Notes: a model not told the origin generated them from the letters alone. A stretch of DNA of 37,520 nt from an uncultured Lachnospiraceae bacterium (GCA_964579815.1 CAZOHP010000003.1:1-37520); one strand, 5' to 3'; counted from the stretch's first letter, positions 2,944 to 36,561 are shown. Made by a program: numbers and translations.

Positions 2944-4014
2944 ATGGGAATTATCTGCCGTTTATTCGAGCATAAGTACGGCGAAAACGATATTTGCACC
3001 CGTTGCGGTACCTCGCGCGGCAGCAAGGGATTAAAATACAGAAAAACCGCCGACAAAAAAAGTTACGCTGTGGTCGGTGCGGGCAAATGTCGCGACGAAA
3101 TCGTTTCCATCCCCCGGTTCTATCAAAACAAGCCGGTCACCGAGATCGGCGCGGGGGCGTTTTCTGGCTACGATATCTCGTGTGACGTCATATTGCCGCC
3201 AAGCATCACAAAAATCGGTCGCGCGGCCTTTCGCCGTTCCGCCCTGCGGCACATTCATTTTTCCGACACTCCCTGTGCCCTGGGCGAAGCGGTGTTTGCC
3301 GGATGTACCCAATTGCAAGAGGCGACATTGCCGCTCGGCATCACCGCCATTCCCGATTCCGCCTATAGCGGTTGCACCGCGCTGACCGAGGTCGCGCTGC
3401 CGGAAAGCGTGACTGCCATCGGCAACCATGCGTTCTCTCTGTGCGCTTCCTTGCGGCATATCACCTATTCGGATGCCATGCTTTCCCTCAGCGCATTCGC
3501 TTTTCGCGGATGTACGGCCCTTGAGACGATCCGTCTGCCCAAAGGCATGACAACGTTACCCGCTTACCTATTGACCGGTTGCGAAACACTCCGATCACTG
3601 GACATTCCCGAAAGCATTACGGCTGTCGGCGAATACGCGTTGGCGGGATGCCTCAACCTCGCGGCGATCGTGTTGCCGGACGGCGTTACCTCCGTCGGTT
3701 CGGGAGCATTCTGCGATTGTGCCTGCATAACATCATTTCGATTTCCCGCCTCGCTGACCGACTTTGTGCCCAATGCAAACGGTGACGGCGATGTGTTCCG
3801 CGGTTGCACCGCTTTGCGAGAAATTCACATGCATACCAATTTCAAGCATTTTCCAACCGGAATGTTCGCCGATTGCTCCTCGCTCACGGATATCTACCTG
3901 GACAACGGAAAATCGCCCGATTGGCGGGACATCCGCAAAGACGCCGACTTCGATAGCGGCTCCGGTACCTATATCGTCCATTTGGTCAACGGAAGAATAC
4001 GAAAAGGAAGTTAA
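2944..4014 (+). CDS. BspA-type leucine-rich-repeat protein with no signal peptide and an N-terminal Cys/His knuckle
   Basis: Repeated ~23-aa units of the form (I/L)P.S(V/I)T.IG..AF.GC..L, an AAAGGAG RBS, and N-terminal CRLFEHKYGENDICTRCG. Confidence 0.8.
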   Translation: MGIICRLFEHKYGENDICTRCGTSRGSKGLKYRKTADKKSYAVVGAGKCRDEIVSIPRFYQNKPVTEIGAGAFSGYDISCDVILPPSITKIGRAAFRRSALRHIHFSDTPCALGEAVFAGCTQLQEATLPLGITAIPDSAYSGCTALTEVALPESVTAIGNHAFSLCASLRHITYSDAMLSLSAFAFRGCTALETIRLPKGMTTLPAYLLTGCETLRSLDIPESITAVGEYALAGCLNLAAIVLPDGVTSVGSGAFCDCACITSFRFPASLTDFVPNANGDGDVFRGCTALREIHMHTNFKHFPTGMFADCSSLTDIYLDNGKSPDWRDIRKDADFDSGSGTYIVHLVNGRIRKGS

Positions 4015-5222: not shown

Positions 5223-5298
5223 TGGAGCTGGTGGCCGGACTCGAACCGGCGACCTGCTGATTACGAATCAGCTGCTCTACCAACTGAGCCACACCAGC
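5223..5298 (-). tRNA. tRNA-Thr (anticodon CGU), CCA encoded
   Basis: Reverse complement is GCTGGTGTGGCTCAGTTGGTAGAGCAGCTGATTCGTAATCAGCAGGTCGCCGGTTCGAGTCCGGCCACCAGCTCCA. It folds as a 76-nt cloverleaf with anticodon loop TTCGTAA. Confidence 0.95.
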
Positions 5299-11283: not shown

Positions 11284-13020
11284 ATGAATACAAAAGAAAA
11301 AAGCAAAAAAATATTCCGCGCGGGCGTAATCGTGTGCCTGTTCGTCCTGTGGTTAGTCCTGCTCACCATGACGGCAAGCGCCGAAATTTACGTTGGGCGA
11401 TACGGCGGACAGGTCGCTTGGTCGTTTGAGGCGGATACGGGCGAATTGCGCATATACGCCGACTGCGGCACGCAATCTCCGGGATGGCAACCGATGGCAG
11501 AACAGATTCGAACGGTCTACATCGCGCCGGGCACCACACGCATTCCCGACGCCGCCTTTCGCGGCTGTACCGCGCTGACGGAACTGTCGTTTCCCGATAC
11601 CGTCACCGTCATCGGCGCCTACGCCTTTGACGGTTGTAGCGCCCTGACGGACGTCACCTTGCCCGAAAGTTTAACTTATATCGGCGAGCATGCCCTGCGC
11701 GGTTGCACCTTGCTGAAGCGCTTGCAATACACCGGAAGTTCGGAACAGTGGGAAATGCTGTGCGTGCGCGTAGCCGCCGTGCAAGGTAACGACACGCTCA
11801 CCGCCCGAGTTCCCACCTACACACGACCCACCTACACATTGACCGTCGTCTACATCAACGCCGACACGGGAGAGACCGTCGCGCCGAACGTCACGCGAAC
11901 GCTGACTTTCGGTTCCGGAACGACAGTCCCCTCTCCCATGGTGGACATGCACGAGGCGGACGAGCGAACCGTTGTCGTCACGGGCATTGCCGCCGACACA
12001 ACGGTAACGGTTCGTTATCATCGTACCCAATGCAGTGTGCAACTCCATTTCGTCGACGAACAAAAAAACGTCGTTCTTCCCTCCCAACGCCTTGCGGTTG
12101 CCTACGGCAGTTCACTTTCCTTTAGCGCCCCGGCAGTCGAGGGCTATCTCATCGATTCGGCTCAAAGCAACTTGGAACTGGAACATGTCACAAGCGCTAC
12201 CACCGAACACACGTTTGTTTACTCCGTCCGCCGTTTGTCGGTGACACTGCATTGCCTTGACGAAAACGGGCAGGCCCTGTGCGAGCCGCCGGTACTCAAC
12301 GATATTCCCTACGGCGGCGATTATCGCTTGGAACTTCCCGTGCTGGACGGATACCTTCGCCCGACCGACTTTGCCGAGGGCAGCGGCATTGTGGAAAATC
12401 TCACGCTTGCCTATCACTACACGCCGCGTTATTTCACCTTAACATTGCGCTATATTGACACCGACGGGGTGATATTGGCCGATGACGAGGAAGTCACGGT
12501 GCGCTACGGAACGACTTTTTCGCGCGCACCCAGGCCTCTGGAGGGCTACCAACCATGTTCCGGCGAGATCACACTCTCGCAGTTGACACACTCGCAGTCG
12601 ATCGAGGTGGTTTATGAACGATCGTCCTACACCCTGACCGTTCTGCATGTGGCAACGGACGGAACTTTACTGCAACAAACGCGGCAAACATTGCTCTACG
12701 GCCAGCCCTATACGCTGACACCGCTGTCGTTCACCGACTACACCATGTCGGAAGAGCAACCGTCCGCGCTCAGCGGCAGTATGCCCGCTTCTCCTTTGAC
12801 CGTCACGATACAATATCGCATCCGAGAGCCGTCGAATCTGCCCGATGCAAGCGACCCTCAAGAAGATGTTCCGTCGCCGACACAAGAGCCATCGAACAAA
12901 CCTCTTTGGTTGCTTGTCGGACTGTGCATGTTGATCGGCGTGTTCGGCATTGCTTTGCTGTTCGTCAACACCGTCTTGTGGCGCCGTCACCGAGCATCGG
13001 AGCCCGGCGCGGAAAAATAA
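11284..13020 (+). CDS. Cell-surface protein: signal peptide, BspA-type LRRs, five MucBP-like repeats, C-terminal TM anchor
   Basis: N-terminal signal ...LLTMTASA. LRR units contain AFRGCTALTEL and AFDGCSALTDV. Five roughly 70-aa repeats are visible (YTLTVVYINADTGE.., CSVQLHFVDEQ.., LSVTLHCLDENG.., FTLTLRYIDTDG.., YTLTVLHVATDG..). A P/S/E-rich linker leads to a hydrophobic helix followed by RRHR. An extended -10 (TGaTATAAT) lies at 11237-11245. Confidence 0.85.
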   Translation: MNTKEKSKKIFRAGVIVCLFVLWLVLLTMTASAEIYVGRYGGQVAWSFEADTGELRIYADCGTQSPGWQPMAEQIRTVYIAPGTTRIPDAAFRGCTALTELSFPDTVTVIGAYAFDGCSALTDVTLPESLTYIGEHALRGCTLLKRLQYTGSSEQWEMLCVRVAAVQGNDTLTARVPTYTRPTYTLTVVYINADTGETVAPNVTRTLTFGSGTTVPSPMVDMHEADERTVVVTGIAADTTVTVRYHRTQCSVQLHFVDEQKNVVLPSQRLAVAYGSSLSFSAPAVEGYLIDSAQSNLELEHVTSATTEHTFVYSVRRLSVTLHCLDENGQALCEPPVLNDIPYGGDYRLELPVLDGYLRPTDFAEGSGIVENLTLAYHYTPRYFTLTLRYIDTDGVILADDEEVTVRYGTTFSRAPRPLEGYQPCSGEITLSQLTHSQSIEVVYERSSYTLTVLHVATDGTLLQQTRQTLLYGQPYTLTPLSFTDYTMSEEQPSALSGSMPASPLTVTIQYRIREPSNLPDASDPQEDVPSPTQEPSNKPLWLLVGLCMLIGVFGIALLFVNTVLWRRHRASEPGAEK

Positions 13021-17141: not shown

Positions 17142-18557
17142 TTATTTACCGACACAAAAATTTTTGAAGATCTCATTCACCACATCTTCGTTGACCTCGC
17201 GACCGTCAAGTTCTGACAATGCGGACATCGCCGCGCTTAAATCAACACAGCAAAGATCGATCGGCATGCCGTGTTCCAGCGCATCCAGCATACGGTGCAA
17301 CGCCTCAATGGCAGTGACAACGGCCGCCTGCTGCCGCGCATTGGCAATGATGGCGTCATGACGAAGATCCAACGCGCCGTCGACAAACCGCGTATTGATT
17401 TCACGAATAAGTTCCTCCATGCCCTCGCCGGTTTGTGCCGAGATAGGCAAGACGCGTTCCACGGTGCGGTGTACAACGGCCGACACGCGATCTGCCACAG
17501 TCGCATCGCAAACCGCATCTGCTTTGTTGAGCAAAGCAATGATTGGCACGCCACGCGCGGCATAATCGGCAAGGGTATGCAACAGCGCATTCTCGTCATC
17601 CGAGAGCGGTTCGGTAAGATCAAACACGGCCAAAACCAGTTCCGCACATTCCAGCGCGGCGCGAGCGCGATCAATCCCGATCTGCTCCACGCGGTCATCC
17701 GTTTCGCGCAGACCTGCCGTGTCATAGAGCCGCAGCGTCACGTCTCCCAATGTTGCCACGTCGCACAACACATCGCGCGTCGTTCCCTCCACATCGGTCA
17801 CAATCGCCGCGTCGCGCCCCAAAATGCGATTGTAAAGCGAACTTTTTCCCACATTGGTGTGCCCGCAGATGACAGTCGGAATTCCCTCGGCCACTGCATG
17901 CCCCGTGCGATAGGTTGCGGCCAACTCCTTCAGGTCACGCAAAACGGTTTGAACGGTTTCCGTCATCTCATCTCGGCTCATTTCGGCCAGATCTTCGTCG
18001 GGGAAATCAATACAGGCCAGTGCGGAACTCATGACGCGCAATAACTGCTCATAGCAAGCGCGGCTGCGCGCCTCCAATTGACCGCCGAGCCCACCGTAAG
18101 CCAGCGTCATCTGGCGGCGATTTCCCGCTTCCAAGAGCGAACCGAGCGCTTCGGCGGCGCTCAACCCCAATTTGCCGTTCATGTGCGCGCGGCGCGTAAA
18201 TTCTCCGGCTCGCGCGGCGCGGGCACCTGCCGCAAGCAAGGCGCTCAGCACCGTTTGCGTAAGCAAAATACCGCCATGACAGCAAATCTCCACCGTATCC
18301 TCGCCCGTAAACGAAGCAGGAGCGCGAAATACAGTTGCAATCCCGTCATCCACGGGCAACCACGTTCCCTCCTCGGGAGCGTAGATTGTCCCGTAGGTGG
18401 CCGTGCGCGGCTGAATTTGCGCCAGCGACCGACCGTTCTTGGGGCAGAACACACGTGACGCGACCTCAACCGCATCGTTTCCGCTGACGCGCAACAATGC
18501 CACACCGCCCTTTCCGTGCGGTGTACTGATGGCGGCAATGGTATCCAGTAGTTCCAT
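17142..18557 (-). CDS. mnmE: tRNA uridine-5-carboxymethylaminomethyl modification GTPase MnmE
   Basis: N-terminus DTIAAISTP.GKGGVALLRVSG, G-domain GHTNVGKSSL and DTAG, and the C-terminal FCVGK motif. ATG at 18557 follows AAGGAGA. Confidence 0.95.
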   Translation of the reverse strand: MELLDTIAAISTPHGKGGVALLRVSGNDAVEVASRVFCPKNGRSLAQIQPRTATYGTIYAPEEGTWLPVDDGIATVFRAPASFTGEDTVEICCHGGILLTQTVLSALLAAGARAARAGEFTRRAHMNGKLGLSAAEALGSLLEAGNRRQMTLAYGGLGGQLEARSRACYEQLLRVMSSALACIDFPDEDLAEMSRDEMTETVQTVLRDLKELAATYRTGHAVAEGIPTVICGHTNVGKSSLYNRILGRDAAIVTDVEGTTRDVLCDVATLGDVTLRLYDTAGLRETDDRVEQIGIDRARAALECAELVLAVFDLTEPLSDDENALLHTLADYAARGVPIIALLNKADAVCDATVADRVSAVVHRTVERVLPISAQTGEGMEELIREINTRFVDGALDLRHDAIIANARQQAAVVTAIEALHRMLDALEHGMPIDLCCVDLSAAMSALSELDGREVNEDVVNEIFKNFCVGK

Positions 18558-18684
18558 AGCATTCTCCTTATATAGCCGATAGTCGATGATCGATAGTCGA
18601 TTGTCGGGACGTTTCTCCAAAGCACATGACGAATCGCGGGGGAAAAGCTTTTTCAAAAAGTTTTTCCCCCGCCTTTTCTATCCC

Positions 18685-19407
18685 TTAATATAAATCTTCG
18701 CCGAAGTCGCGCAGGATCTCATCCTCCTCAACCTCATGGTGAGGGCGATGAGCGGCCTCGGACTTCTCATCCAGGAAAATGACGACCTTGCGGTTGTCCT
18801 CCGACCCGATTGAGTTGGTCGAAACTCCCTCGATGCCTTGAATTTCCGAGTGGATGATGCGACGCTCATAAGGGTTCATCGGTTCGAGCATCACGCTCTT
18901 TTTGTAGCGCAACACCCGCGACGCCATACGACGTGCCAACGCACGCAGCGTCTCTTCACGTTTGGCGCGATAGTTTTCCACGTCAATGGTAATCTTGACA
19001 TACTCGCGCTTCTCGCCTTCGCTTTTTTTATTGGCGGCGAGATTGGAAAGGTACTGCAAAGCGTCCAGCGTGTCTCCATGGTGACCGATCAGCACGCCGG
19101 CGTGGTCACCGTCGATCGCAATGATCTTATCTCCGTTGGTACCATCACGCACTTCCATGGTCACATCCAACCCCATGTTGCGGGTCAGTTCGGTCAGAAA
19201 TTCCAGTGCCAGTGCGACACCGTTTTTCTGATAGGTCGCCTCAATCACAGCCGGCGTAGCGCCGATGCCGAACAATCCCTTCTTCGGCTCCTCAATGACC
19301 TTGTATTCAATGTCGGACACGCTCGGCGCACCCAATTCGCACACCGCTTTTTCCAGCGCTTCGTCCATCGTTTTTGCCGTAATCGTAACTTGCTTTCTCA
19401 CAATCAT
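18685..19407 (-). CDS. jag: Jag/KhpB RNA-binding protein (Jag_N, KH and R3H domains)
   Basis: It occupies the conserved position between yidC and mnmE. The C-terminus carries the R3H-like motif LEPMNPYERRIIH. Confidence 0.88.
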   Translation of the reverse strand: MIVRKQVTITAKTMDEALEKAVCELGAPSVSDIEYKVIEEPKKGLFGIGATPAVIEATYQKNGVALALEFLTELTRNMGLDVTMEVRDGTNGDKIIAIDGDHAGVLIGHHGDTLDALQYLSNLAANKKSEGEKREYVKITIDVENYRAKREETLRALARRMASRVLRYKKSVMLEPMNPYERRIIHSEIQGIEGVSTNSIGSEDNRKVVIFLDEKSEAAHRPHHEVEEDEILRDFGEDLY

Positions 19408-19441
19408 TCTCCATTCGTCATATCAGAATTTGCGGGGGCGA

Positions 19442-21142
19442 TCATTGACCGTCCTTATTTTTCTTGTTGTTGCGAGGGCGGCTGTCTTCTTTGATCGTCG
19501 CGCCGTCCAGCCGACTCTCGGCCGCAGATTTTGCATCATCGGTCGCCTTTTCTTCGGCCTCTTTTTGTTCTTCCTCTTCTATGCGGGCAACATAGTCGTC
19601 ATCATCCATATGGAAGAGCGACTTGGGCTTACCGCCCACCATCTTGGTGTCGCGCCCGTAAGCATACTGCCCCGCCTCTTGGCGACGCGGCGCCTTGCCG
19701 GCATACTCACGTTCGGCGGCTCGATAGTCTTCCTCGGTAAATTGTGGGTAAGGCATCACGCGGCTGATCACAAAGCGCGAGAGCGTTGAGATGATGCTCT
19801 TGAACATCCAGTAAATACCGATCAAAGCGGGCACAACGAAAGCAATATACACGCTCATCAGCGGCATCGTAATATCCATCATCCAGTTGGAGCAGGCCGC
19901 TTGGCGCTCGTCCACACCGGTCATGTTGGAGGGCTGATAGGTGAATTTTTTGGTCAGTCGCATTGACAGGAAGTAGACCACAAAAGTGAGTACGGGAACG
20001 AGTAGCAAAATCTTGGTCCCGTTAAATGAGGGAATCTCGCCCAAATTGATACCGCCCAGCGTAAAGTTGGGAATAGTCATATTGCTCATGCGCCCGTAGA
20101 CCTCTTCACCGTTTCTCAACAGCATGAAGTCACGGATACCCTCCAGTTGGTCGCCGATGCGTGACAGAATCTCAATCGTCCCCCGTCTTGACTGCGCTAC
20201 AGTTGCACCCAAACCTCCCGCCGCACGCGCGGTGGAGTAGTAAAGGCCGAGAGCCGAGGACATGCCCGAAGCTTGCCCCAGCACATAGTGCAACGGATCG
20301 ACCACGATGTTGTACAAAGCCAAGATGATGGGCATTTGAATGAGCAACGGCAAGCATCCCGAGGCCGCGCTGACATTCTCGCGCTGATACAACTCTTGAA
20401 TTTCCGTCGCAACTTTCTGGCGTGTCACCTGATCATCGCGGCCGGCATACTTTTTGCGAATTGCCATTTCCTTGGGACGCAGTTTGGCCTGCTTGATCGA
20501 ACTTTTCTGTTGTTTGATCGCCAGCGGCAACATCAGCACTTCCACCAAAATGGCAAAGATACAAATACCGATGATATAGTATCCGCCGCCCAAAGTGTTG
20601 GTAATCCAGCCGAGCGCCGCGCCAATCCAGCCGAGCAGTGTATCCCAAAAACCGCCCTTGCCGTCCAGTTCCACATTGGTTTGAATGGAATTGATCATCA
20701 CGCGAACATCAGCGGCATTGATACCGGAATAATCGAAATTGGCGCGATCGTCGACACTGCTGACCAGTTTGGCCTTGTCAAGCAGTTTGACAACAGCCTC
20801 CAAGTTCGGCTCTCCCGCTTCGTCGGGATCAATGATGTTATCATCGAAATTCTCGGCAAGCATGTCGTAACCGCGGTAAGCAGCCACGAGCATTTCGGGG
20901 GTTTTGTAGGTACTATCGACCTTGTCATAGGTCGCGACGAGCATTTCGGCCAAATTTTTGAGCGAAGCACCGTCCATCGAACACTCGGTCTTGTCCAAAT
21001 CGAGGAACGCGTCGGCATCTACCGTCGGAGCCGAAATCGTCACGCTCGACGAACCGCAACCGACCAAACTCGTCAAGAGCAACACGGCCAGCAATGCGAT
21101 GGCGAGAATTTTCCCGCCTTTGATTTTGTTGATTGTTTTCAT
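19442..21142 (-). CDS. yidC: YidC/Oxa1-family membrane protein insertase, unusually long at 566 aa
   Basis: Lipobox LVGC at the N-terminus. The core contains QQKSSIKQAKLRPKEMAIRKKY, SGCLPLLIQMPIILALY and later TM helices. There is a long N-terminal extracytoplasmic segment and a charged C-terminal tail. Confidence 0.9.
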   Translation of the reverse strand: MKTINKIKGGKILAIALLAVLLLTSLVGCGSSSVTISAPTVDADAFLDLDKTECSMDGASLKNLAEMLVATYDKVDSTYKTPEMLVAAYRGYDMLAENFDDNIIDPDEAGEPNLEAVVKLLDKAKLVSSVDDRANFDYSGINAADVRVMINSIQTNVELDGKGGFWDTLLGWIGAALGWITNTLGGGYYIIGICIFAILVEVLMLPLAIKQQKSSIKQAKLRPKEMAIRKKYAGRDDQVTRQKVATEIQELYQRENVSAASGCLPLLIQMPIILALYNIVVDPLHYVLGQASGMSSALGLYYSTARAAGGLGATVAQSRRGTIEILSRIGDQLEGIRDFMLLRNGEEVYGRMSNMTIPNFTLGGINLGEIPSFNGTKILLLVPVLTFVVYFLSMRLTKKFTYQPSNMTGVDERQAACSNWMMDITMPLMSVYIAFVVPALIGIYWMFKSIISTLSRFVISRVMPYPQFTEEDYRAAEREYAGKAPRRQEAGQYAYGRDTKMVGGKPKSLFHMDDDDYVARIEEEEQKEAEEKATDDAKSAAESRLDGATIKEDSRPRNNKKNKDGQ

Positions 21143-21268
21143 GTTTCACCGTTTTGCGGAAGCGCGACACGCGCTCCACGCAAAAACTCCCTTTCGTTGA
21201 ATGTTTGGGAATTTGCACCGCCCATTTTGCGCATTTGTCGCGCGGTGCTGCGACATGTCATCGTTCGT

Positions 21269-21622
21269 TCACTCACCCGAATCATGCGAGTGAGTGCTTT
21301 GTCTGCGCTCGCGTCGCAGAACATAATCTTCGCAGATGAGTTTCGGCTCATCCGCCAAAGACGTGTCATTGATCGTTTTTTTGCTTTTTCTTCGCCGTGC
21401 GGTCCCTCGTTGCGGAACGGGATCATAACCACCGGGGCAAAAGGGATTGCATCGCGCAATGCGGCAAATCGTCAGCCACAAGCCGACGAAAAAGCCTCGC
21501 GTTTGAAAAGCCTCCACGGCATAGGCCGAGCAAGTCGGTTCAAAGCGGCAAGTCGGACGTGATTTCAGCGGAGAGATGCAACGCTGATAAAAGCGGATCA
21601 GCCAAATACACAGCCACTTCAT
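21269..21622 (-). CDS. yidD: Membrane protein insertion efficiency factor YidD with a ~47-aa basic C-terminal extension
   Basis: YQRCISPL...[11 protein letters not shown]...CNPF..GGYDPVP core. The start overlaps the rnpA stop. Confidence 0.88.
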
Positions 21623-22026
21623 CGTTTCGGCGCGGCTGTGCTTTCACTGTCACCGTTGAACAATTTCAAATGAGCAAAAGCGCGGCGCAACTCGCGTTCA
21701 ACATCCTGCATTTTTTTGCCGCAGATTCCTCCTCTTGCGGCAATGACGACAAGATAGCCTGTTTTCAGTTTTCCCTCGCGCTCAATGGCACGATAGGCCT
21801 CGCGCATAATACGCTTGGCACGCGAGCGCACGCATGCCGAACCGATCTTTTTTGACACGGCAAGGCCGATGCGATTGACGTACACCTTCATTGGGTGCGA
21901 CTTCATCAGGCGCTTGGCCGCGAAATCGCGCAACACATAGACGGCCACCGTCTGACCGACATAGCGGCTGCCCTGTTTGTACGCTTTATTGTAAAGATGG
22001 TGTTCGCGAATGGCGACAAATTTCAT
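21619..22026 (-). CDS. rnpA: Ribonuclease P protein component
   Basis: Basic ~135-aa protein in the conserved position after rpmH, with the motif VSKKIG.A..RSRAKR. The internal ATG at 22026 is preferred over the long ORF starting at 22170. Confidence 0.88.
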
Positions 22027-22204
22027 ATTTGATCTTTGATCCTTTTGCTCTGCCTTGGTTTGCATTGATCGTGTGTCAACTTCCGTCGGGGCGCGTGGGA
22101 CGCGAATGAATACATAGCAAAAAGTCCGATGCCGCAAATACAGTGTAAGACCACGGTGCACTTGAGGCAATCGGAACTTTCATGTGTGCGGGGCACGACC
22201 GATA

Positions 22205-30425: not shown

Positions 30426-31544
30426 TTACAGTTCAACACGCTTAACGGTTTCTCCGCGATCGGAATTGAAAGTGACAGTCACGTCGTCCTCGCGCAATTC
30501 CACCGCCGTACCGATATAAGTCGGTTCCGGGGCGAACGTGGGAGCCGAGCCGATGACAGCAGGCCAGCCGAGCCCTTGGTGATCATCCGCATCGCCGGGC
30601 TTGACCACGCGAACGAAATGCGTGTGCCCATGCAGGCTGAGCGTCGGTTTCACATGCTCGCGCAACAGGCGCACCCATTCGCCGTAAAGCGGCTGTTCAA
30701 TATCAAAAGGCGGTTCGGGAATGCGGAAAAACGGAATATGGCTGATCACAAGGCGAAAATCCACACCCTCGGCCGCATATTCGGCAGATGCGCGGCGAAT
30801 GACCGAGCGGATAAAGTCGGTTTCGGCCAAGCGGTATTCCCGGAAGCATGTCGTATGGCCGTATTCTGCGCAACTGTCCGCTTTATCTTCCCCGCAATCC
30901 AGAACCAATCCCCAGACACGGCCAAGGCGGAAAGTGTAATAAGTGCGGTTGTTGCAGGTGGGAATATAATCCGGCATGTCCTCGGCATGGATGCCGCGTG
31001 TATCGTGGTTGCCGCGCGCAAAAACGACGGGGCAACGGCCGCCTGTCAAAGCGGCGGCGATCTCACAGATGGCATTGAAATTTTCCACCGCGCCGCTATG
31101 GTTGGGGATGTCACCGTTGAGTACGAGCAGATGTAGCGCATCGCCGAAGTAACGCCCCGCCGCCACCGGCTCGGCTACCATATTATGTGCATCGGCAATC
31201 TGATAAATATTGATCGTCCCCTCTGTCGGCAACGGGCGGTAAGCAATCGTCAGTGATTGTTCCGGTTCACTCGTCGGGAAATAGGGCTTACGCTCGATGA
31301 TATTACGCCACAGCACGGTATATTTTCCCGCTGCGTCCAACACATCCATGGGCAGTTCGACGCGATGCATACGTTTGCCCGAGCGCATCACGCCGCAAGA
31401 ATGGTCATAAAAAACACGCTCGCCGACGCGCACGGACATCAAAACTTCGCGAGTGAACGGGATCATAATGGTATAGCGATCTTCCACGGCAAAAACGGTA
31501 GGCAAGCAATACATTTCGGGGGGGAGCATCGATTGAGATGTCAT
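30426..31544 (-). CDS. Metallophosphoesterase (calcineurin-like, with an N-terminal beta-sandwich)
   Basis: IADAH, NGDIPNH, ARGNHD, SHIP and HGHTH motifs in the canonical order. ATG at 31544 follows GGAGGA. Confidence 0.8.
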   Translation of the reverse strand: MTSQSMLPPEMYCLPTVFAVEDRYTIMIPFTREVLMSVRVGERVFYDHSCGVMRSGKRMHRVELPMDVLDAAGKYTVLWRNIIERKPYFPTSEPEQSLTIAYRPLPTEGTINIYQIADAHNMVAEPVAAGRYFGDALHLLVLNGDIPNHSGAVENFNAICEIAAALTGGRCPVVFARGNHDTRGIHAEDMPDYIPTCNNRTYYTFRLGRVWGLVLDCGEDKADSCAEYGHTTCFREYRLAETDFIRSVIRRASAEYAAEGVDFRLVISHIPFFRIPEPPFDIEQPLYGEWVRLLREHVKPTLSLHGHTHFVRVVKPGDADDHQGLGWPAVIGSAPTFAPEPTYIGTAVELREDDVTVTFNSDRGETVKRVEL

Positions 31545-31569
31545 TTTCGTTTCCTCCACATTGATTATT

Positions 31570-32190
31570 TTAGGTTGATTGATCGAATTTGGCACGTAGT
31601 TCGACCACACGGCCGAAGATGCGCAACGGCGTCTCACGCAAGCGGGCAGCCGAGAAAAACATCGGCTCGTAATCGGGGTTGAACGAGAGGAGCATAACGC
31701 CCTCTTTCATGATCTTGACGCGCTTACAGGTAGCACTTGCGCTACCGTCGCCCTCATCAAGCAACACGACGGCGATTTGACCGTCCTCAACGGTCTGCTG
31801 TATACGGACAATGACGATGTCACCGTCTTCCATGCGCGGTTGCATACTGTTGCCGTGAATACGCAATGCGACAAACTCACCCGTTGCCGCCATATCGGCG
31901 GGAATCTCCTCGAAGTCATCCGAATCTGTCAGCGCATCAATGGGCGGCCCGGCTGCCACATCGCCACACACGGGAATACGCACAGCGTTCAAACGAGCGC
32001 TCTGCGGCTCAAACAGCACATGCGGCTCGATACCGAAATATTCCGACAATCGCTCCCGACTGCGGCGGCCGGGCAACGCGCCGTTTTTCCATTTGGTCAC
32101 CGAGCCGGTCGCAATACCACAGGCATGAACGACCTCGGTCGGCGTTTTTCCCGTTTTGCGGCACAACTCGCAAAAATTTTCCCAGAACAT
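31570..32190 (-). CDS. CI/LexA-like repressor: XRE-type HTH plus an S24 autopeptidase domain
   Basis: HTH KTGKTPTEVVHACGIATGSVTKWKNG. Ala-Gly cleavage site in GDVAAGPP. Ser nucleophile in HGNSMQP and general-base Lys in ATCKRV. ATG at 32190 follows AAAGGAGA. Confidence 0.88.
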   Translation of the reverse strand: MFWENFCELCRKTGKTPTEVVHACGIATGSVTKWKNGALPGRRSRERLSEYFGIEPHVLFEPQSARLNAVRIPVCGDVAAGPPIDALTDSDDFEEIPADMAATGEFVALRIHGNSMQPRMEDGDIVIVRIQQTVEDGQIAVVLLDEGDGSASATCKRVKIMKEGVMLLSFNPDYEPMFFSAARLRETPLRIFGRVVELRAKFDQST

Positions 32191-32210
32191 AGCGTCTCCT
32201 TTTTCCACAA

Positions 32211-32303
32211 ACATGCTCAGAAGTGAATTGCATACCATTGGATATAGTGCGGAAAATTCACCTAAAATGAATTTTCTTCTTGACATTTCACCAAAAGTGA
32301 ATT
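32211..32303. promoter_or_regulatory. Operator cluster: two full copies and one partial copy of a 19-bp dyad, AWTTCACCWAAARTGAATT
   Basis: O1 at 32255-32273 is AATTCACCTAAAATGAATT. O2 at 32285-32303 is ATTTCACCAAAAGTGAATT (16/19 identical to O1, offset 30 bp). O3 at 32211-32229 keeps the right half, AAGTGAATT. Confidence 0.7.
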
Positions 32304-32308
32304 ATAAT
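32280..32308 (+). promoter_or_regulatory. Consensus sigma-70 promoter of the tail-fibre-like gene, with operator O2 filling the spacer
   Basis: TTGACA, 17-nt spacer, TATAAT (both hexamers perfect). A ~115-nt leader follows, then AGGAGGA and the ATG at 32430. Confidence 0.8.
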
Positions 32309-32429
32309 AGATGCAGCATGCGATAGCTACGCACGCGAAGAGCGGGCACGGTCAGACCTGTCCGGACAACCTTATTGTACCATGTTTCCGCTCGTTCGTC
32401 AACTATATTTTTCAAATAGGAGGAACAAT

Positions 32430-33971
32430 ATGCCAAATCTTCATGTTTCGATTCGTAACAAAGTTGCCCGAGCGGCGCGACGCGACGGTGCCATCGTATG
32501 CGGCAACAACGATTATTCCGTCATTTTCTCGTTTGACGATGAATGGAAGCAATATGCCGAAAAAACCGCCCGTTTTATTTGGAACGACAATTATTTTGAT
32601 ATTGACTTTATCGGGGACACATGCCCGGTGCCGCCGATCACTTCGGCTCCGTCGCTTGAGGTGGGGGTTTATGCGGGCGAACTGCGCACGACGACTGCGG
32701 CGTTGATTCCCTGCCGTCCGTCCGTTTGCAGTGACACACAAAAGAAAATTGCGCCGGAGGCGGTCGAAGAATACCGCGATCGGGCACAAACGGCGGCAAT
32801 TGAGGCCAAGGCCGCCGCCGCATCGGCCGTGCAGGCGCTTGAGGACTTCCGAGCAAGCAAGGACAGTACCGAACGCTTAGCCGACGATGCATTACGCACC
32901 GCGCAAGCGGCAACGGCGACAGCTGCGGAAGCATCCGGGCGGACAGATGAACTGGCCACGCAGGTCGCTTCGGCCATCGATCACGCATCCGAGATGAGCA
33001 AGCACGCGGCGACCAAGCACATTCGCTATGCGTTCACGGTCGGGCAGGACGACGAGCGAAACTATCTGACCGAGGATTCCTCTGGAATCTATTCGGCGTC
33101 GGGGGCTTTTCGCTACAACGACAGAGACAAGGTGACGATCTATCGCTATCCTTTGACCGACAGCGGCGCGATCACTTCGGCCGTGTGGCACGCGCATTTG
33201 GCGCAACAGCATTTACTGCAAGCATCTGCGGACGGAGAGACATGGCTCACGCTATACGACACCGCAGGCGCATCCTCGGGGACACAGGATCATTACGAAC
33301 TTTGCGGCATACTGCCGTTGGCCGAAGCAGAAGCACTCTATATCAAGATTGCCGACTCCGACACGGCAGACGGACACGGCGGGGCTGTTTTGGCCGACAT
33401 TCCCGTGACGCTGGATCTCACCTATGGGGCGACGCTTCCCTATTTACTGCCCACGGTCGGTGAGGCGGACGAGGGGGCGGTGCTCCGCGTACTCGGCGGT
33501 CGATGGCGCGCTTGCGACGCAACGACGCTGAATTCCCGCGTTTACACGTATCTGTTCAAGGTCGGAGAGGAATCCGAGCAAGCGTATCTTTTGAACGAGT
33601 CGAACGGTTTACTCAACGACACCTGCCGCTACAACGACGGCGTTCGCTCTACCGTTTACCGCTATCACATTGCCAACGCGGCCTTGGTGCGTCGCGTGCT
33701 GTGGACGGCGACGGTCGGGCAACAACTCAAGTTGGAATGCTCAAACGACGGCAAGCAATGGTCGACCGTTTACGATGCGGGAAGCACAAAAACGGCATTT
33801 GCGCGCACGACATACGACTTGACGGCACTGCTCAATCTTTTGGCATTTGACGAAATTTACATTCGCATTTCGGATTCGGACCCATCCGACGGGTTCGGCG
33901 GGGCGATCCGCATGAGCGACGCCGTGGAGTTGCACGTGGAGCGCTGTGAATTGCCGATCGGCATGATGTAA
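32430..33971 (+). CDS. Phage tail-fibre / receptor-binding-like protein: N-terminal beta domain, Ala-rich coiled coil, two tandem ~135-aa discoidin-like repeats
   Basis: AGGAGGA RBS. The N-terminus (NLHVSIRNKV...IVCGNNDYSVIFSFDDEW...VGVYAG) resembles phage baseplate or fibre N-domains. The coiled coil runs AIEAKAAAASAVQALEDF...ELATQVASAI. The repeats share F.VG..E..YL..S.G...RYND..T.YRY...W.A..QQ..L..S.DG..W.T.YD...YI.I.DSD..DG.GGA. There is no signal peptide. Confidence 0.55.
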   Translation: MPNLHVSIRNKVARAARRDGAIVCGNNDYSVIFSFDDEWKQYAEKTARFIWNDNYFDIDFIGDTCPVPPITSAPSLEVGVYAGELRTTTAALIPCRPSVCSDTQKKIAPEAVEEYRDRAQTAAIEAKAAAASAVQALEDFRASKDSTERLADDALRTAQAATATAAEASGRTDELATQVASAIDHASEMSKHAATKHIRYAFTVGQDDERNYLTEDSSGIYSASGAFRYNDRDKVTIYRYPLTDSGAITSAVWHAHLAQQHLLQASADGETWLTLYDTAGASSGTQDHYELCGILPLAEAEALYIKIADSDTADGHGGAVLADIPVTLDLTYGATLPYLLPTVGEADEGAVLRVLGGRWRACDATTLNSRVYTYLFKVGEESEQAYLLNESNGLLNDTCRYNDGVRSTVYRYHIANAALVRRVLWTATVGQQLKLECSNDGKQWSTVYDAGSTKTAFARTTYDLTALLNLLAFDEIYIRISDSDPSDGFGGAIRMSDAVELHVERCELPIGMM

Positions 33972-33979
33972 GGAGGTGA

Positions 33980-34198
33980 GCACATACGGAAACAATCAAG
34001 CAAAAACTGACTTCACGCAAATTATGGGTTGCGCTGGCGGGGTTTATCTCCGCGCTGATCATTGCGTTTGACGGCAACGCCGAGGAGGCCGAAACGGTCA
34101 CGGGGTGCATTATGGCGGGCGCGAACATGATCGCTTACATTATCGGCGAGGGGCTGGTTGACCGCTCCGGGCGTTCCGGGCGGAGCGAGGACGACTGA
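33980..34198 (+). CDS. Holin-like small two-TM ORF with no canonical start codon (non-AUG start or decayed gene)
   Basis: The frame is open stop-to-stop and encodes ..TETIKQKLTSRKLWVALAGFISALIIAFDGNAEEAETVTGCIMAGANMIAYIIGEGLVDRSGRSGRSEDD. That gives two hydrophobic helices and a charged tail. AGGAGG lies at 33971-33976. The first ATG/GTG/TTG in frame is at 34112. Confidence 0.45.
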   Translation, partial: AHTETIKQKLTSRKLWVALAGFISALIIAFDGNAEEAETVTGCIMAGANMIAYIIGEGLVDRSGRSGRSEDD

Positions 34199-34210
34199 GG
34201 GCGAAAAACA

Positions 34211-34243
34211 GCAAGGGAGACCTCCGACGGAGATCTCCCCTGC
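34211..34243. terminator. Terminator hairpin shared by the convergent holin-like ORF and the surface-protein gene
   Basis: GCAAGGGAGACCTCC-GAC-GGAGATCTCCCCTGC. On the minus strand it is followed by TGTTTTT. Confidence 0.75.
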
Positions 34244-34323
34244 TTATGTTATTTCACCATGCGGCCTTACTCACCCAAACGCAACGCGTTTTTCAAGGCT
34301 CACGGTTATGTTGCGAAATTCGC

Positions 34324-36153
34324 TTATTTCTTCTTCTTGCGAACAACCAGAAGAACGACCACGCCGGCGATCACGACAACGGCGACGACAACGATCACAA
34401 TGATCAACGTTGTGTTACCGGACTCGTCATCGGTCTTTGTGTCATCGGCAGGCTTCTTGTCATCATCGGCGGGCTTGTTATCGTCTTCACCGGGCTTCTT
34501 ATCATCCGTACCGGGATCGGTGGGATTTTCGGGCTCAACGGGAGTGTTTTCAAACTCAACGATAGCGGCCTCGGCCGTTTCCAGTTTCTTGAGCATATCG
34601 GCGCTGACGAAACTCTTCTCCAGGTCGGAGAGTTTATCGTAAACGGCTCTTGCGCCTTGAACCTTAATCTTCATCGAGGTGTAGTTATCGGCGGTGATCT
34701 CGGTCAACTGCTCGATACGGTTATCCATCTTAGCAGCTGCTTCCTTAGCGTCGGCCTCAAGGACTGCCTGAGCGTCGGTCAAGCGGAAGTTATCGAACTG
34801 GATAGCGATGGAAGACTCGATTTCGGGGCTCACCATGTAGAAGCCGATGAAATTGATGTTGGAGATATCAAACGCGGCATTGGGATTTGCAGAGGAGAGC
34901 GGCAGAACGATGTGGTTCCAGCCGACAACGAGATCGCTACCCTGATTCTTTGCTTTGATCTGAGCCACGGTCCAGTTGATCTCCTGCTCATCTGCCTTGC
35001 CGGAAGAAGTGATCTCCAGTTGGTTGCTGCCGAGTTGGGCATCGAAGATAGCCAAATCGGAGACGTACATATCGAACTCAAGGGTATCATAACCGGTGCC
35101 GTCTACGGGAGTAGCCAGCGTAAAGCGGTTGATGGTCTGCTCGCCGGGTTTGACGATCAGCAAGAGGCTGGCGAAACCGGCTTTCTTATTTTCCGTATCC
35201 AGCGTGAAATTGGTGCCGGCGGGAACTTCGTTACAGCCGAACAGGGAGATGGAATGATCATCCTTGGCGACTTCCGAAGCATTGACCTTATCCGCATAGA
35301 GTTGATCGGCCTCAGCCTGAGAGGTTACGAAATACAGCGGGCGGGCATTGTTGATGTCGCGGCTGTGGTAACCCTGAGCGGCGCCGTCATTGACGAATGT
35401 CAAGCATTTCTGAGCAAGGCAGGAGCCTTTGCCGTCCGTTACACTTGCTTCACCGAAGTTAATGCAAACGTCCAAGCCCATGCTATCACCGTTCTTCGGG
35501 ATGGAAGAGAGGACTTTCACGAAAGGCAGTTCCACTTCATAGATGACGTGCGAGCCGTCACGGGTGACCTTACAATTGAGGTCGGTCATGCCGTTGTCAC
35601 CGTTCTTGAGCGTCGGGTGCTGCTTATCGGATGTATTCTTGTTCTGGCCGAACGAGGTCTGGAGAGTCTCGTTGCTCTCATTGATGGCCATACCCCAGTC
35701 TACGTTATCGCCCGACTTGAAATCGAACATACCCAACTGCGTGCAGAAAGACATCCACATGCTGCCGGCCGGCAAGCCTGCGGGATAATCCCAGCCGAGG
35801 ATGTTGGTATCGATGCAAACATACAGAGCGCTGTCCGTCCAAACGGCATAGCCCTTGGCATAGTTCTCTTCCACCAAAACCAGCGCGAGGACGTCGTCCT
35901 TATCACCGGTTGCTTTGGTGAAGAACCAGTTTGCGACCGAGGTGTAGTCACCGGCGAAACTGTCGGTACCATCGGAAACAAAGTAGAAGATCGGCTCGCC
36001 GTAGGCTTCGTCCACGGCACCGTCAACGGTGATTGCGCCCTCTTCGACTTTGAGAGCCGCATAGTAGTTCGGGTTGTAGAGTTCTGCGGACGCCGAGACC
36101 GCGAGAACCACAGCCAAAGCCGCAACCAGCAGAACTGTCAAAATTTTTTTCAT
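34324..36153 (-). CDS. Cell-surface protein: signal peptide, CBM9-like and further beta-sandwich domains, helical segment, D/K/P-rich linker, C-terminal TM anchor with a KKKK tail
   Basis: Signal MKKILTVLLVAALAVVLAVSASA. ITVDGAVDEAYG resembles a CBM9/DOMON-type start. The linker reads DDKKPGEDDNKPADDDKKPADD, followed by IIVIVVVAVVVIAGVVVLLVVRKKKK. ATG at 36153 follows GGGGAGGA. Confidence 0.8.
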   Translation of the reverse strand: MKKILTVLLVAALAVVLAVSASAELYNPNYYAALKVEEGAITVDGAVDEAYGEPIFYFVSDGTDSFAGDYTSVANWFFTKATGDKDDVLALVLVEENYAKGYAVWTDSALYVCIDTNILGWDYPAGLPAGSMWMSFCTQLGMFDFKSGDNVDWGMAINESNETLQTSFGQNKNTSDKQHPTLKNGDNGMTDLNCKVTRDGSHVIYEVELPFVKVLSSIPKNGDSMGLDVCINFGEASVTDGKGSCLAQKCLTFVNDGAAQGYHSRDINNARPLYFVTSQAEADQLYADKVNASEVAKDDHSISLFGCNEVPAGTNFTLDTENKKAGFASLLLIVKPGEQTINRFTLATPVDGTGYDTLEFDMYVSDLAIFDAQLGSNQLEITSSGKADEQEINWTVAQIKAKNQGSDLVVGWNHIVLPLSSANPNAAFDISNINFIGFYMVSPEIESSIAIQFDNFRLTDAQAVLEADAKEAAAKMDNRIEQLTEITADNYTSMKIKVQGARAVYDKLSDLEKSFVSADMLKKLETAEAAIVEFENTPVEPENPTDPGTDDKKPGEDDNKPADDDKKPADDTKTDDESGNTTLIIVIVVVAVVVIAGVVVLLVVRKKKK

Positions 36154-36487: not shown

Positions 36488-36561
36488 TGGAGGCGCCACC
36501 CGGAATCGGACCGGGGATGAAGGTTTTGCAGACCTCTGCCTTACCGCTTGGCTATGGCGCC
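36488..36561 (-). tRNA. tRNA-Cys (anticodon GCA), CCA encoded, with an atypical T-loop
   Basis: Reverse complement is GGCGCCATAGCCAAGCGGTAAGGCAGAGGTCTGCAAAACCTTCATCCCCGGTCCGATTCCGGGTGGCGCCTCCA. It has the U73 discriminator and anticodon loop CTGCAAA. The T-loop reads TCCGATT. Confidence 0.9.

Follow-up and report, generated by a model that had tools for sequence, protein, structure and literature searches.

Domesticated phage parts have so far mostly been whole machines, such as tailocins, gene transfer agents and PBSX, or single genes. The closest described systems include the clostridial loci in which leaderless proteins are exported in a holin-dependent manner, namely TcdE with TcdA/B, the holins of TpeL and TcsL, and UviB with the bacteriocin Bcn5; expression of Bcn5 is ultraviolet-inducible, and holin-linked loci of the Bcn5 type are always associated with an endolysin (PMC9527704). 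The late operon of PBSX ends in the order xepA-xhlA-xhlB-xlyA and the structure of XepA is available (6I56; PMC6834076), and coliphage 186 provides a described case of convergent promoters, pR and pL, with transcriptional interference between them (PMC6593788, PMC7708051). The locus compared here with these systems is a three-gene cassette at positions 31570-34243 of a 37,520-nt stretch of DNA from an uncultured Lachnospiraceae bacterium (GCA_964579815.1 CAZOHP010000003.1:1-37520), the whole of which was analysed and is referred to as the window. The cassette consists of a gene for a 206-aa repressor on the minus strand, divergent from a gene for a 513-aa fibre-like protein and a small holin homologue on the plus strand, with a regulatory switch between them. 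In these three genes, a complete phage decision switch appears to control a holin and a receptor-binding protein with nothing in between.

That the cassette is an exapted prophage fragment is well supported by comparison of its sequence with those of phages and related loci. It appears to be an immunity switch joined to the distal part of a late operon, with loss of the genes for replication, head, tail, endolysin and integrase, and the likeness to phage genes supports a phage ancestry of all three parts. Domain scans of the window proteins found no phage structural, integrase or lysin genes anywhere in the 37.5-kb window, which extends to the full stretch what a preliminary description of this DNA had reported for the vicinity of the cassette, and no tail tube, sheath/tape-measure or baseplate genes were found in the window or in the flanks of related loci (up to 10 kb where the contig reaches). 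The preliminary description had also taken both flanks to consist of ordinary genes, and all other sizeable open reading frames (ORFs) of the window to which a function could be assigned were indeed housekeeping genes, leaving three ORFs without a Pfam match. Neither GC content nor skew showed a compositional anomaly of the cassette relative to the window, and an Rfam scan returned two tRNAs only, with no known RNA element at the cassette.

The cassette was present at the same chromosomal locus in at least seven diverged genomes (the window and loci L001, L002, L011-13, L014, L015 and L204), with a gene order that was constant in every locus with enough flank: the repressor on one strand, and the big gene followed by the small one on the opposite strand. 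The shared host neighbours were a TMEM164-like protein, a metallophosphoesterase and a GH106-like or NTP_transf_5 protein, and no phage genes were found in the available flanks of the related loci, up to 10 kb where the contig allows. The 513-aa protein had 14 full-length homologues at 49-62% identity, which came from gut and rumen metagenomes and from metagenome-assembled genomes (MAGs) labelled Eubacteriales or Clostridia bacterium. The comparison of genomes that the preliminary description had proposed therefore favours domestication, in that the three-gene unit recurs at the same locus without phage structural genes.

Selection on the locus was estimated pairwise by the Nei-Gojobori method, with the metallophosphoesterase gene as the flank reference. 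The ratio of non-synonymous to synonymous substitution rates (dN/dS) was 0.08-0.30 for the repressor, 0.11-0.40 for the big gene and 0.13-0.37 for the holin, alongside 0.10-0.19 for the flanking metallophosphoesterase, all of these being approximate values given that synonymous sites are near saturation (proportion of synonymous differences, pS, 0.41-0.74). The proportion of non-synonymous differences (pN) was far below pS in all three genes. Pairwise dN correlated with that of the flanking gene for the repressor (r = 0.94) and for the fibre (r = 0.76), and did not track it for the short holin gene (r = 0.24). Because pN is so far below pS, and because the divergence of repressor and fibre tracks that of the flank, the locus is best read as vertically inherited and selected rather than as a decaying scar, across carrier lineages that differ by 13-35% in the housekeeping neighbour. 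The cassette thus appears to have been passed on vertically, with selection acting on it, among uncultured Clostridia of gut and rumen, and it probably serves the cell.

The switch between the divergent genes contains two promoters and two operators. The preliminary description had noted a perfect TTGACA-17-TATAAT promoter with an operator in its spacer, and this was confirmed: the cargo promoter is the only one with 12/12 matches to the sigma-70 consensus in the scanned interval 31400-34500, and its spacer is filled by the inverted repeat O1. The operator pattern, TTCAC-N5-GTGAA, had five matches in the window against 1.1 expected, a number reached by none of 100 shuffles. The half-sites of O1 and O2 were invariant across six aligned loci with centres that vary, and both sites were readable in L202 and L204; the palindromic sites are therefore conserved, and the repressor is predicted to bind them at the promoter that it controls. 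The hexamers of the cargo promoter were likewise kept in the six loci (with A or T as the last base of the first hexamer) and again in L202 and L204. A second conserved promoter, overlooked in the preliminary description, would serve the repressor gene from the minus strand. It reads TTGACG, 17 nt, TA(C/A/G)AAT across the six aligned loci, with hexamers kept and a spacer that varies, and is also found in L202 and L204. The two promoters stand face to face and their predicted transcripts overlap by about 50 nt, an arrangement in which transcriptional interference would be expected. The 5' untranslated region of the big gene showed no significant fold (z = -1.3) and no Rfam match.

The origin of this switch is indicated by the closest non-cassette repressors, which are 45-50% identical and lie within true lysogeny modules, where they are flanked on one side by a serine recombinase or tyrosine integrase and on the opposite side by small early or Cro-like genes; the expectation that in a temperate phage such a promoter would drive cro or early genes is thereby met in the repressor's own relatives. 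In the prophages L198 and L200, a 12/12 promoter lies 81-109 bp from the repressor start with an opposing promoter further out, which is the geometry of the cassette, and L198 also has the same operator half-sites at the same positions and spacing. Given this shared geometry, and the shared half-sites in L198, the cassette has inherited an intact phage immunity switch, in which the promoter of the phage early genes would here drive the big gene. An IMG/VR search for the switch sequence with two patterns gave no exact match, and the search of the same collection with the repressor found no close phage relatives, the matches being at about 40% identity and confined to the helix-turn-helix (HTH) region. 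The mobile element of L198 (11513-16609) also encodes a 2557-aa LPD3/ART-PolyVal protein and a PcfJ-like protein, and may be a conjugative or phage-plasmid-like element, not a simple prophage. Two further sequence features were observed in the switch. A motif CATTGG(A/T)(T/G)ATAG at 32236-32247, between O2 and the repressor start, is conserved in the six aligned loci and fits neither the operator nor a promoter hexamer. An extra GTGAA half-site at 32223-32227, about 30 bp to the left of O2, occurs in the window and L014 only and may be the remnant of a third operator.

The repressor matched Pfam Peptidase_S24 (PF00717) with 86.7 bits against a cutoff of 23.3, over profile positions 1-116 of 116, and phrog_4 ('transcriptional repressor') with 2.5e-29 over residues 12-197; HTH_26 and HTH_3 matches were found in its orthologues and relatives. 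The elements required for self-cleavage had been listed in the preliminary description as an AAG site, a GNSM serine and a CKR lysine. All are present, the site reading VAAG, and the residues A80, G81, S115 and K156 are invariant in six orthologues. The start of the gene is at 32190, as the orthologues all begin MFW(E/D/Q/R)NFC (MFWENF in the window) behind a GGAG ribosome-binding site, and a 238-aa ORF with an upstream ATG was ruled out as the repressor gene by this shared start at MFW. Assignment as the host LexA was also rejected, the TIGR00498 score being 62.3 bits against a cutoff of 110.95 and covering the C-terminal protease half only, and no LexA (Cheo-type) box, CGAAC-N4-GTTCG, was found in 31570-34243. 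A functional-looking switch of the RecA-type inducible kind is well supported by these features, and self-cleavage of the repressor would be RecA-dependent.

The 513-aa protein has no hydrophobic N-terminus by hydropathy and its gene has a good ribosome-binding site. The preliminary description had seen in it a leaderless protein with a fibre-like N-terminal domain, a coiled coil and two repeats, and this organisation was recovered from hydropathy, from an AlphaFold2 (AF2) model and from the comparison of R1 with R2, which are 35% identical (E 9e-28). In the model, a beta domain (residues 1-96) is followed by one long helix (109-193) and then by a pair of beta-sandwich domains (196-332 and 351-506). 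This is a modular architecture like that of phage receptor-binding proteins, with a tandem galactose-binding-like head. With the C-terminal half, Foldseek returned the C domains of factor VIII, CBM51, malectin-like domains and the C-terminal carbohydrate-binding module of Vip3, with probability 1.0 and low whole-chain template modelling (TM) scores, and also BcsB. The F5/8 type C score of the window protein was 22.6 bits, below the Pfam cutoff of 28.2, and multi-repeat homologues passed with 93 bits. The R1 and R2 repeats may accordingly be sugar-binding domains. An XepA-like assignment was considered and not adopted, being a generic beta-sandwich similarity only (rank 47, TM score about 0.2).

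Each end of the protein was found on other partners. Relatives of the N-domain are 32-52% identical and carry unrelated C-termini (collagen-like, poly-Gly and repeat regions), making it a common gut-phage module. In prophages, the genes for N-domain proteins follow Prophage_tail or DUF859 genes and precede the lysis genes, with the exception of one N-domain protein beside a terminase. In the phage contig L007 (4899-6011), the order is unusual for a siphophage, the N-domain protein being flanked by the large terminase and the portal, and the lysis genes standing among the head genes. A separate model of the N-domain (mean predicted local distance difference test, pLDDT, 89) had no PDB match better than E 0.015, with TM scores below 0.5, and showed a generic Ig/FN3-like fold; its gene context suggests that it may serve in docking. 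At the other end, an exhaustive search for the repeat gave 129 representative clusters, among them proteins of 511-630 aa that carry the R1-linker-R2 head at 43-45% identity on different N-termini; on one of them, with a head 45% identical, the N-terminus is a BppU_N domain (42.5 bits, the cutoff being 23.1). The two ends of the big protein thus have the character of modules that are swapped among phage receptor-binding proteins. The full-length combination was found neither in IMG/VR nor in a collection of metagenome contigs, where there were N-domain matches only, and among GenBank phage records only unannotated gut-metagenome phages matched the holin or the N-domain, so that no published name was available. 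Within the cassette, the domains differ in dN/dS, with 0.18 for the N-domain, 0.28 for R1, 0.23 for R2 and 0.40 for the Ala-rich helix, whose length varies as well as its sequence; conservation is highest in the N-domain, with 65% mean identity. The repeat is also carried by a membrane-anchored protein. A 2.1-kb metagenome contig, L205 (27-467), has the first 110 fibre residues fused in frame to a C-terminal fragment of ClpB beside an intact switch and repressor, and was left out of the cassette variants as a probable chimeric assembly.

The preliminary description of the last gene as a small ORF with two transmembrane segments and a charged tail held for the first segment (aa 13-28, Kyte-Doolittle 2.5) and for the tail; the second segment (aa 38-58) is moderate at 1.6, and what had been called a 72-codon ORF has no start codon. 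The open frame 33980-34198 runs from stop to stop without ATG, GTG or TTG. Six orthologues start GGAGGTGA(N4-6)ATG, and the aligned codon of the window is ACG at 33986, which could reflect real loss of the start and a recent pseudogene, weak non-canonical initiation, or an error of sequencing or assembly. The spacer that follows the ribosome-binding site is also 2 nt longer in the window (33984-33988; compare L015 7950-7970). The family to which the protein belongs has 6720 members and more than 560 matches in IMG/VR; it has no match in Pfam or NCBIfam, and its match to phrog_297 ('holin') is weak (E 0.003). In the sampled phage contigs whose neighbours were scanned, homologues with 59-79% identity lie between an XhlA-like transmembrane/coiled-coil gene and an endolysin, which may be of the GH25, Amidase_2, M23 or ELLD type. 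Because a position next to endolysins in phages is the classic signature of a holin, the small protein is taken to be a holin homologue. In a few phages, the N-domain protein and the holin occur in one late region, e.g. L107 (holin 72% identical), and a cassette derived from the distal end of a late operon would be consistent with this. The coordinates of the features are collected in Table 1.

Table 1. Features of the cassette, in window coordinates
Feature	Position	Strand	Remarks
CI-type repressor, 206 aa	31570..32190	-	N-terminal XRE-type HTH, C-terminal S24 autopeptidase
Operator O2	32257..32271	.	TTCACCTAAAATGAA; centred 30 bp upstream of O1
Cargo ('lytic-type') promoter, TTGACA-17-TATAAT	32280..32308	+	TTGACA 32280-32285, 17-nt spacer, TATAAT 32303-32308; predicted transcription start ~32315
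Operator O1	32287..32301	.	TTCACCAAAAGTGAA; perfect inverted repeat in cargo-promoter spacer
Repressor promoter, TTGACG-17-TACAAT	32402 to 32374	-	TGn extended -10; within 5' untranslated region of big gene; predicted transcription start ~32367
Leaderless fibre-like/receptor-binding-like protein, 513 aa	32430..33971	+	AF2 pLDDT 82; tandem galactose-binding-like fold
N-terminal beta domain	aa 1-100, nt 32430-32729	+	
Ala-rich helix	aa 109-193, nt 32754-33008	+	
Repeat R1	aa 196-335, nt 33015-33434	+	
Linker	between R1 and R2	+	phage-fibre-like motif LLPTVGEADEGAVLRVLGGRW
Repeat R2	aa 366-508, nt 33525-33953	+	
Holin homologue, 70 codons from ACG	33986..34198	+	open frame from 33980; ribosome-binding site AAGGAGG 33970-33976
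Hairpin, 16-bp stem	34210-34244	.	between convergent cassette and 609-aa gene; T-run on minus strand

A terminator had been placed after the cassette in the preliminary description. The hairpin is present, and because its T-run sits on the minus strand it would primarily end the convergent gene for a 609-aa protein, acting at best as a bidirectional terminator. This neighbour (34324-36153, minus strand) probably lies at the cell surface, having a stalk rich in Pro, Asp and Lys and, at its C-terminus, a transmembrane anchor that ends in KKKK. It was ruled out as a paralogue of the R1/R2 repeats, to which it has no similarity; its tail is similar to that of P0029, a carrier of the repeat domain of the cassette. 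On the other side, the repressor gene is followed in all eight other distinct cassette loci examined by a TMEM164-family membrane-protein gene (e.g. L204 2882-3631; L001 8405-9148), which is missing from the window, where a gap of 22 bp (31548-31569) separates the end of the repressor from the metallophosphoesterase gene. The only locus without the TMEM164-like gene is also the only locus whose holin is without ATG (n=1), and it would be pure speculation to see in the TMEM164-like protein a protective, antiholin-like or immunity-like partner. 

Elsewhere in the window, the housekeeping set includes a GH106-like protein, two metallophosphoesterases, an SbcC-like ATPase, KsgA, RlmL and rnpA-yidC-jag-mnmE, and further genes which, each being recognised from its sequence, are taken to be those for transketolase, Ddl and HemK. 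The genes rnpA, yidC, jag/khpB and mnmE at 17142-22170 (minus strand) are in an order typical of the replication-origin region, the cassette lying approximately 10-15 kb from this oriC-proximal gene set. A tRNA-Cys(GCA) gene at 36488-36561 lies 2.3 kb beyond the cassette, and a tRNA-Thr(CGT) gene at 5223-5298 lies far upstream. Proteins with BspA-type leucine-rich repeats (LRR_5) are encoded in the host window (2944-4014; 11284-13020), one of them with a MucBP domain, and LRR_5 proteins are also found in the late operons of phages, immediately before genes of the cassette's holin family (L005 11387-13186; L107 14800-16359).

The explanation favoured here, and tentatively so, is that the cassette is a domesticated fragment of a temperate siphophage in which DNA damage gates the co-expression of fibre and holin, freeing the fibre from a damaged subpopulation of cells. 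At rest, repressor dimers on O1 and O2 would block the cargo promoter, and the repressor would be transcribed from the opposing promoter. Upon DNA damage, RecA filaments would stimulate self-cleavage of the repressor at Ala-Gly, the cargo promoter would fire, and convergent transcription would lower repressor synthesis, resulting in commitment to the induced state. The leaderless fibre, with its anchor domain, coiled coil and two discoidin-like sugar-binding domains, would then build up in the cytoplasm until the holin permeabilised the membrane, and release could proceed through the holin passage itself or through host autolysins after collapse of the proton-motive force. Damage-triggered release of a lectin is plausible on this scheme, in which the fibre-lectin would leave the damaged cells, and the holin-dependent export of leaderless proteins known from clostridia (PMC9527704) counts in its favour.

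Several observations weigh against this explanation. No endolysin or endolysin remnant was found in the cassette or in the 37.5-kb window, and the holin of the window has no canonical start, so that in this genome release may be feeble or no longer take place. Among the cassette and flanking proteins, there was no toxin domain, no immunity gene and no PADLOC match, the last of which also excluded a known anti-phage defence system. The N-domain is without a solved structural relative, all the relatives are metagenome contigs or MAGs from uncultured organisms and known from sequence alone, and the near-saturation of synonymous sites makes the selection estimates approximate. Finally, the fibre gene is absent from L202 (7947-8410) and L203 (5419-5882), where a precise deletion with its junction at the ribosome-binding site of that gene has brought an intact holin directly behind the switch, the repressor (66% identity), the two promoters and the two operators all being kept.

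The last of these observations makes a strong rival of a module centred on the holin, since L202 drops the fibre and keeps the holin. On that account, which is judged unlikely overall yet not lightly set aside, a repressor-gated holin would permeabilise compromised cells upon damage or phage attack, and could bring about altruistic death or abortive infection, the release of DNA, vesicles or cytoplasmic goods, or the activation of autolysins, the fibre being an accessory passenger. The holins of L202 and L203 have kept every invariant residue, the family is one of genuine phage lysis holins, and, one lineage having deleted the fibre gene precisely, the binding protein is not an indispensable core. 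The window is, however, the reverse of L202 and L203, with the fibre gene intact, the holin start lost and the TMEM164-like gene missing; purifying selection acts on every domain of the fibre in at least seven lineages, and known defence systems gave no match. Given the loss of the fibre in L202/L203 and of the holin start in the window, there is no cargo gene that all lineages require, and the repressor and switch are the constant parts of the cassette. These lineage-specific losses amount to a natural experiment as to which of the parts has the function under selection. In a further explanation, the repressor is retained for superinfection immunity against homo-immune phages, or as regulator or leader of the downstream host operon (TMEM164-like protein, metallophosphoesterase), the late genes being silent and tolerated. 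The divergence of the repressor is the most flank-like of the three genes, co-directional host genes follow it within 15-40 bp, and the operator half-sites are in use in an extant mobile element, L198. Silent genes, however, would not show dN/dS values of 0.1-0.4 with intact frames at near-saturated synonymous divergence, and the perfect-consensus cargo promoter is also conserved, which makes retention for the repressor's sake quite improbable.

A somewhat less improbable, though still rather unlikely, alternative is that the protein is a spare tail fibre supplied in trans, its N-domain docking on the virions or tailocin-like particles of a resident prophage co-induced by the SOS response and altering or broadening their targets, with the holin adding to the timing of lysis. 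This would suit the conservation of the N-domain, the identity of about 50% between that domain and prophage proteins in the fibre position, and the modular architecture in which heads are swapped among anchors. It is weakened by there being no partner phage in the window or in related contigs, by the conservation of R2, which is not diversifying in the manner of typical arms-race fibres, and by vertical inheritance over a deep divergence, for which an equally persistent partner would be needed. Least probable of all, to the point of being very doubtful, is a neutral and slowly decaying prophage scar without present function. Piecemeal losses by lineage (of the holin ATG and the TMEM164-like gene in the window, of the fibre gene in L202/L203) and the lack of a demonstrated function would be expected of such a scar; synteny and intact ORFs in at least seven lineages, a pN far below pS in all three genes and a phylogenetic footprint on four separate regulatory elements would not. 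The deletion remnant of a prophage that the preliminary description had offered as its alternative is accordingly disfavoured as an account of the present state of the locus, and very likely describes the route by which it arose.

Under the favoured explanation of damage-gated release, the cassette would, if its function were confirmed, provide a compact and naturally insulated damage-inducible expression switch for Clostridia, and would indicate that one tail fibre by itself can be put to use outside the virion. A bolder and more doubtful extension is that two prophage ends have been made into an endolysin-free, damage-triggered 'fibre-ocin' or lectin-release device of gut Clostridia, in which a bistable switch would commit a damaged subpopulation to producing a trimeric sugar-binding fibre and a holin, the fibre would escape through the holin directly or by way of activated autolysins, and the freed fibre could block phage receptors, or agglutinate or kill neighbouring cells.

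The individual parts of the cassette can be set beside described phage systems. As in 186 (pR/pL) and P2 (Pe/Pc), a strong lytic promoter meets a repressor promoter and the repressor is predicted to act at the lytic promoter; the cassette repressor is, however, of the lambda/LexA-like HTH and S24 type and not the CI of 186, its lytic promoter would drive fibre and holin rather than early genes, and the likeness is one of sequence only. The 513-aa protein shares with the receptor-binding proteins of the lactococcal BppU_N type an anchor, a coiled coil and a carbohydrate-binding head, with the differences that its N-domain is not BppU_N and that its gene lies outside a phage. PBSX likewise has a multi-beta-sandwich protein directly upstream of a holin in a domesticated Firmicute prophage, and an XhlA-like gene also precedes the cassette-type holin in phage relatives. 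The cassette nevertheless has neither xhlA nor xlyA, and PBSX keeps a full particle. From tailocins and PBSX-like particles in general it is distinguished by the absence of tail tube, sheath and baseplate genes, so that its product would be a single fibre and not a particle.

As a whole, the predicted layout resembles that of colicin operons and of pyocins and tailocins controlled by PrtR, which is itself an S24 repressor, in that a damage-inducible repressor gates a released protein and a small membrane-active release gene. In comparison with colicin operons, the cassette has no LexA box, killing domain or immunity gene, and the holin only stands in for a lysis gene. The TcdE and UviB systems resemble it in the position of a large signal-less cytoplasmic protein beside a phage-derived holin at a non-phage locus, but are regulated by the sigma factors TcdR and UviA, where the cassette has a CI-type repressor. 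In comparison with TcdE, UviB and type 10 secretion systems (T10SS), the cassette also has no endolysin, which again counts against release as proposed, its holin belongs to another family without a Pfam model, and its cargo carries no toxin domain. Damage-gated release of the fibre would hence work like the colicin, Bcn5 and TcdE systems and yet, on this comparison of parts, appears to place the cassette in none of them. If such a function were confirmed, the cassette would add an endolysin-free, repressor-gated case to holin-dependent protein release, and the 'fibre-ocin' device, if true, would be a Gram-positive functional analogue of the colicin operon, with all of its components taken from phage structure and lysis.

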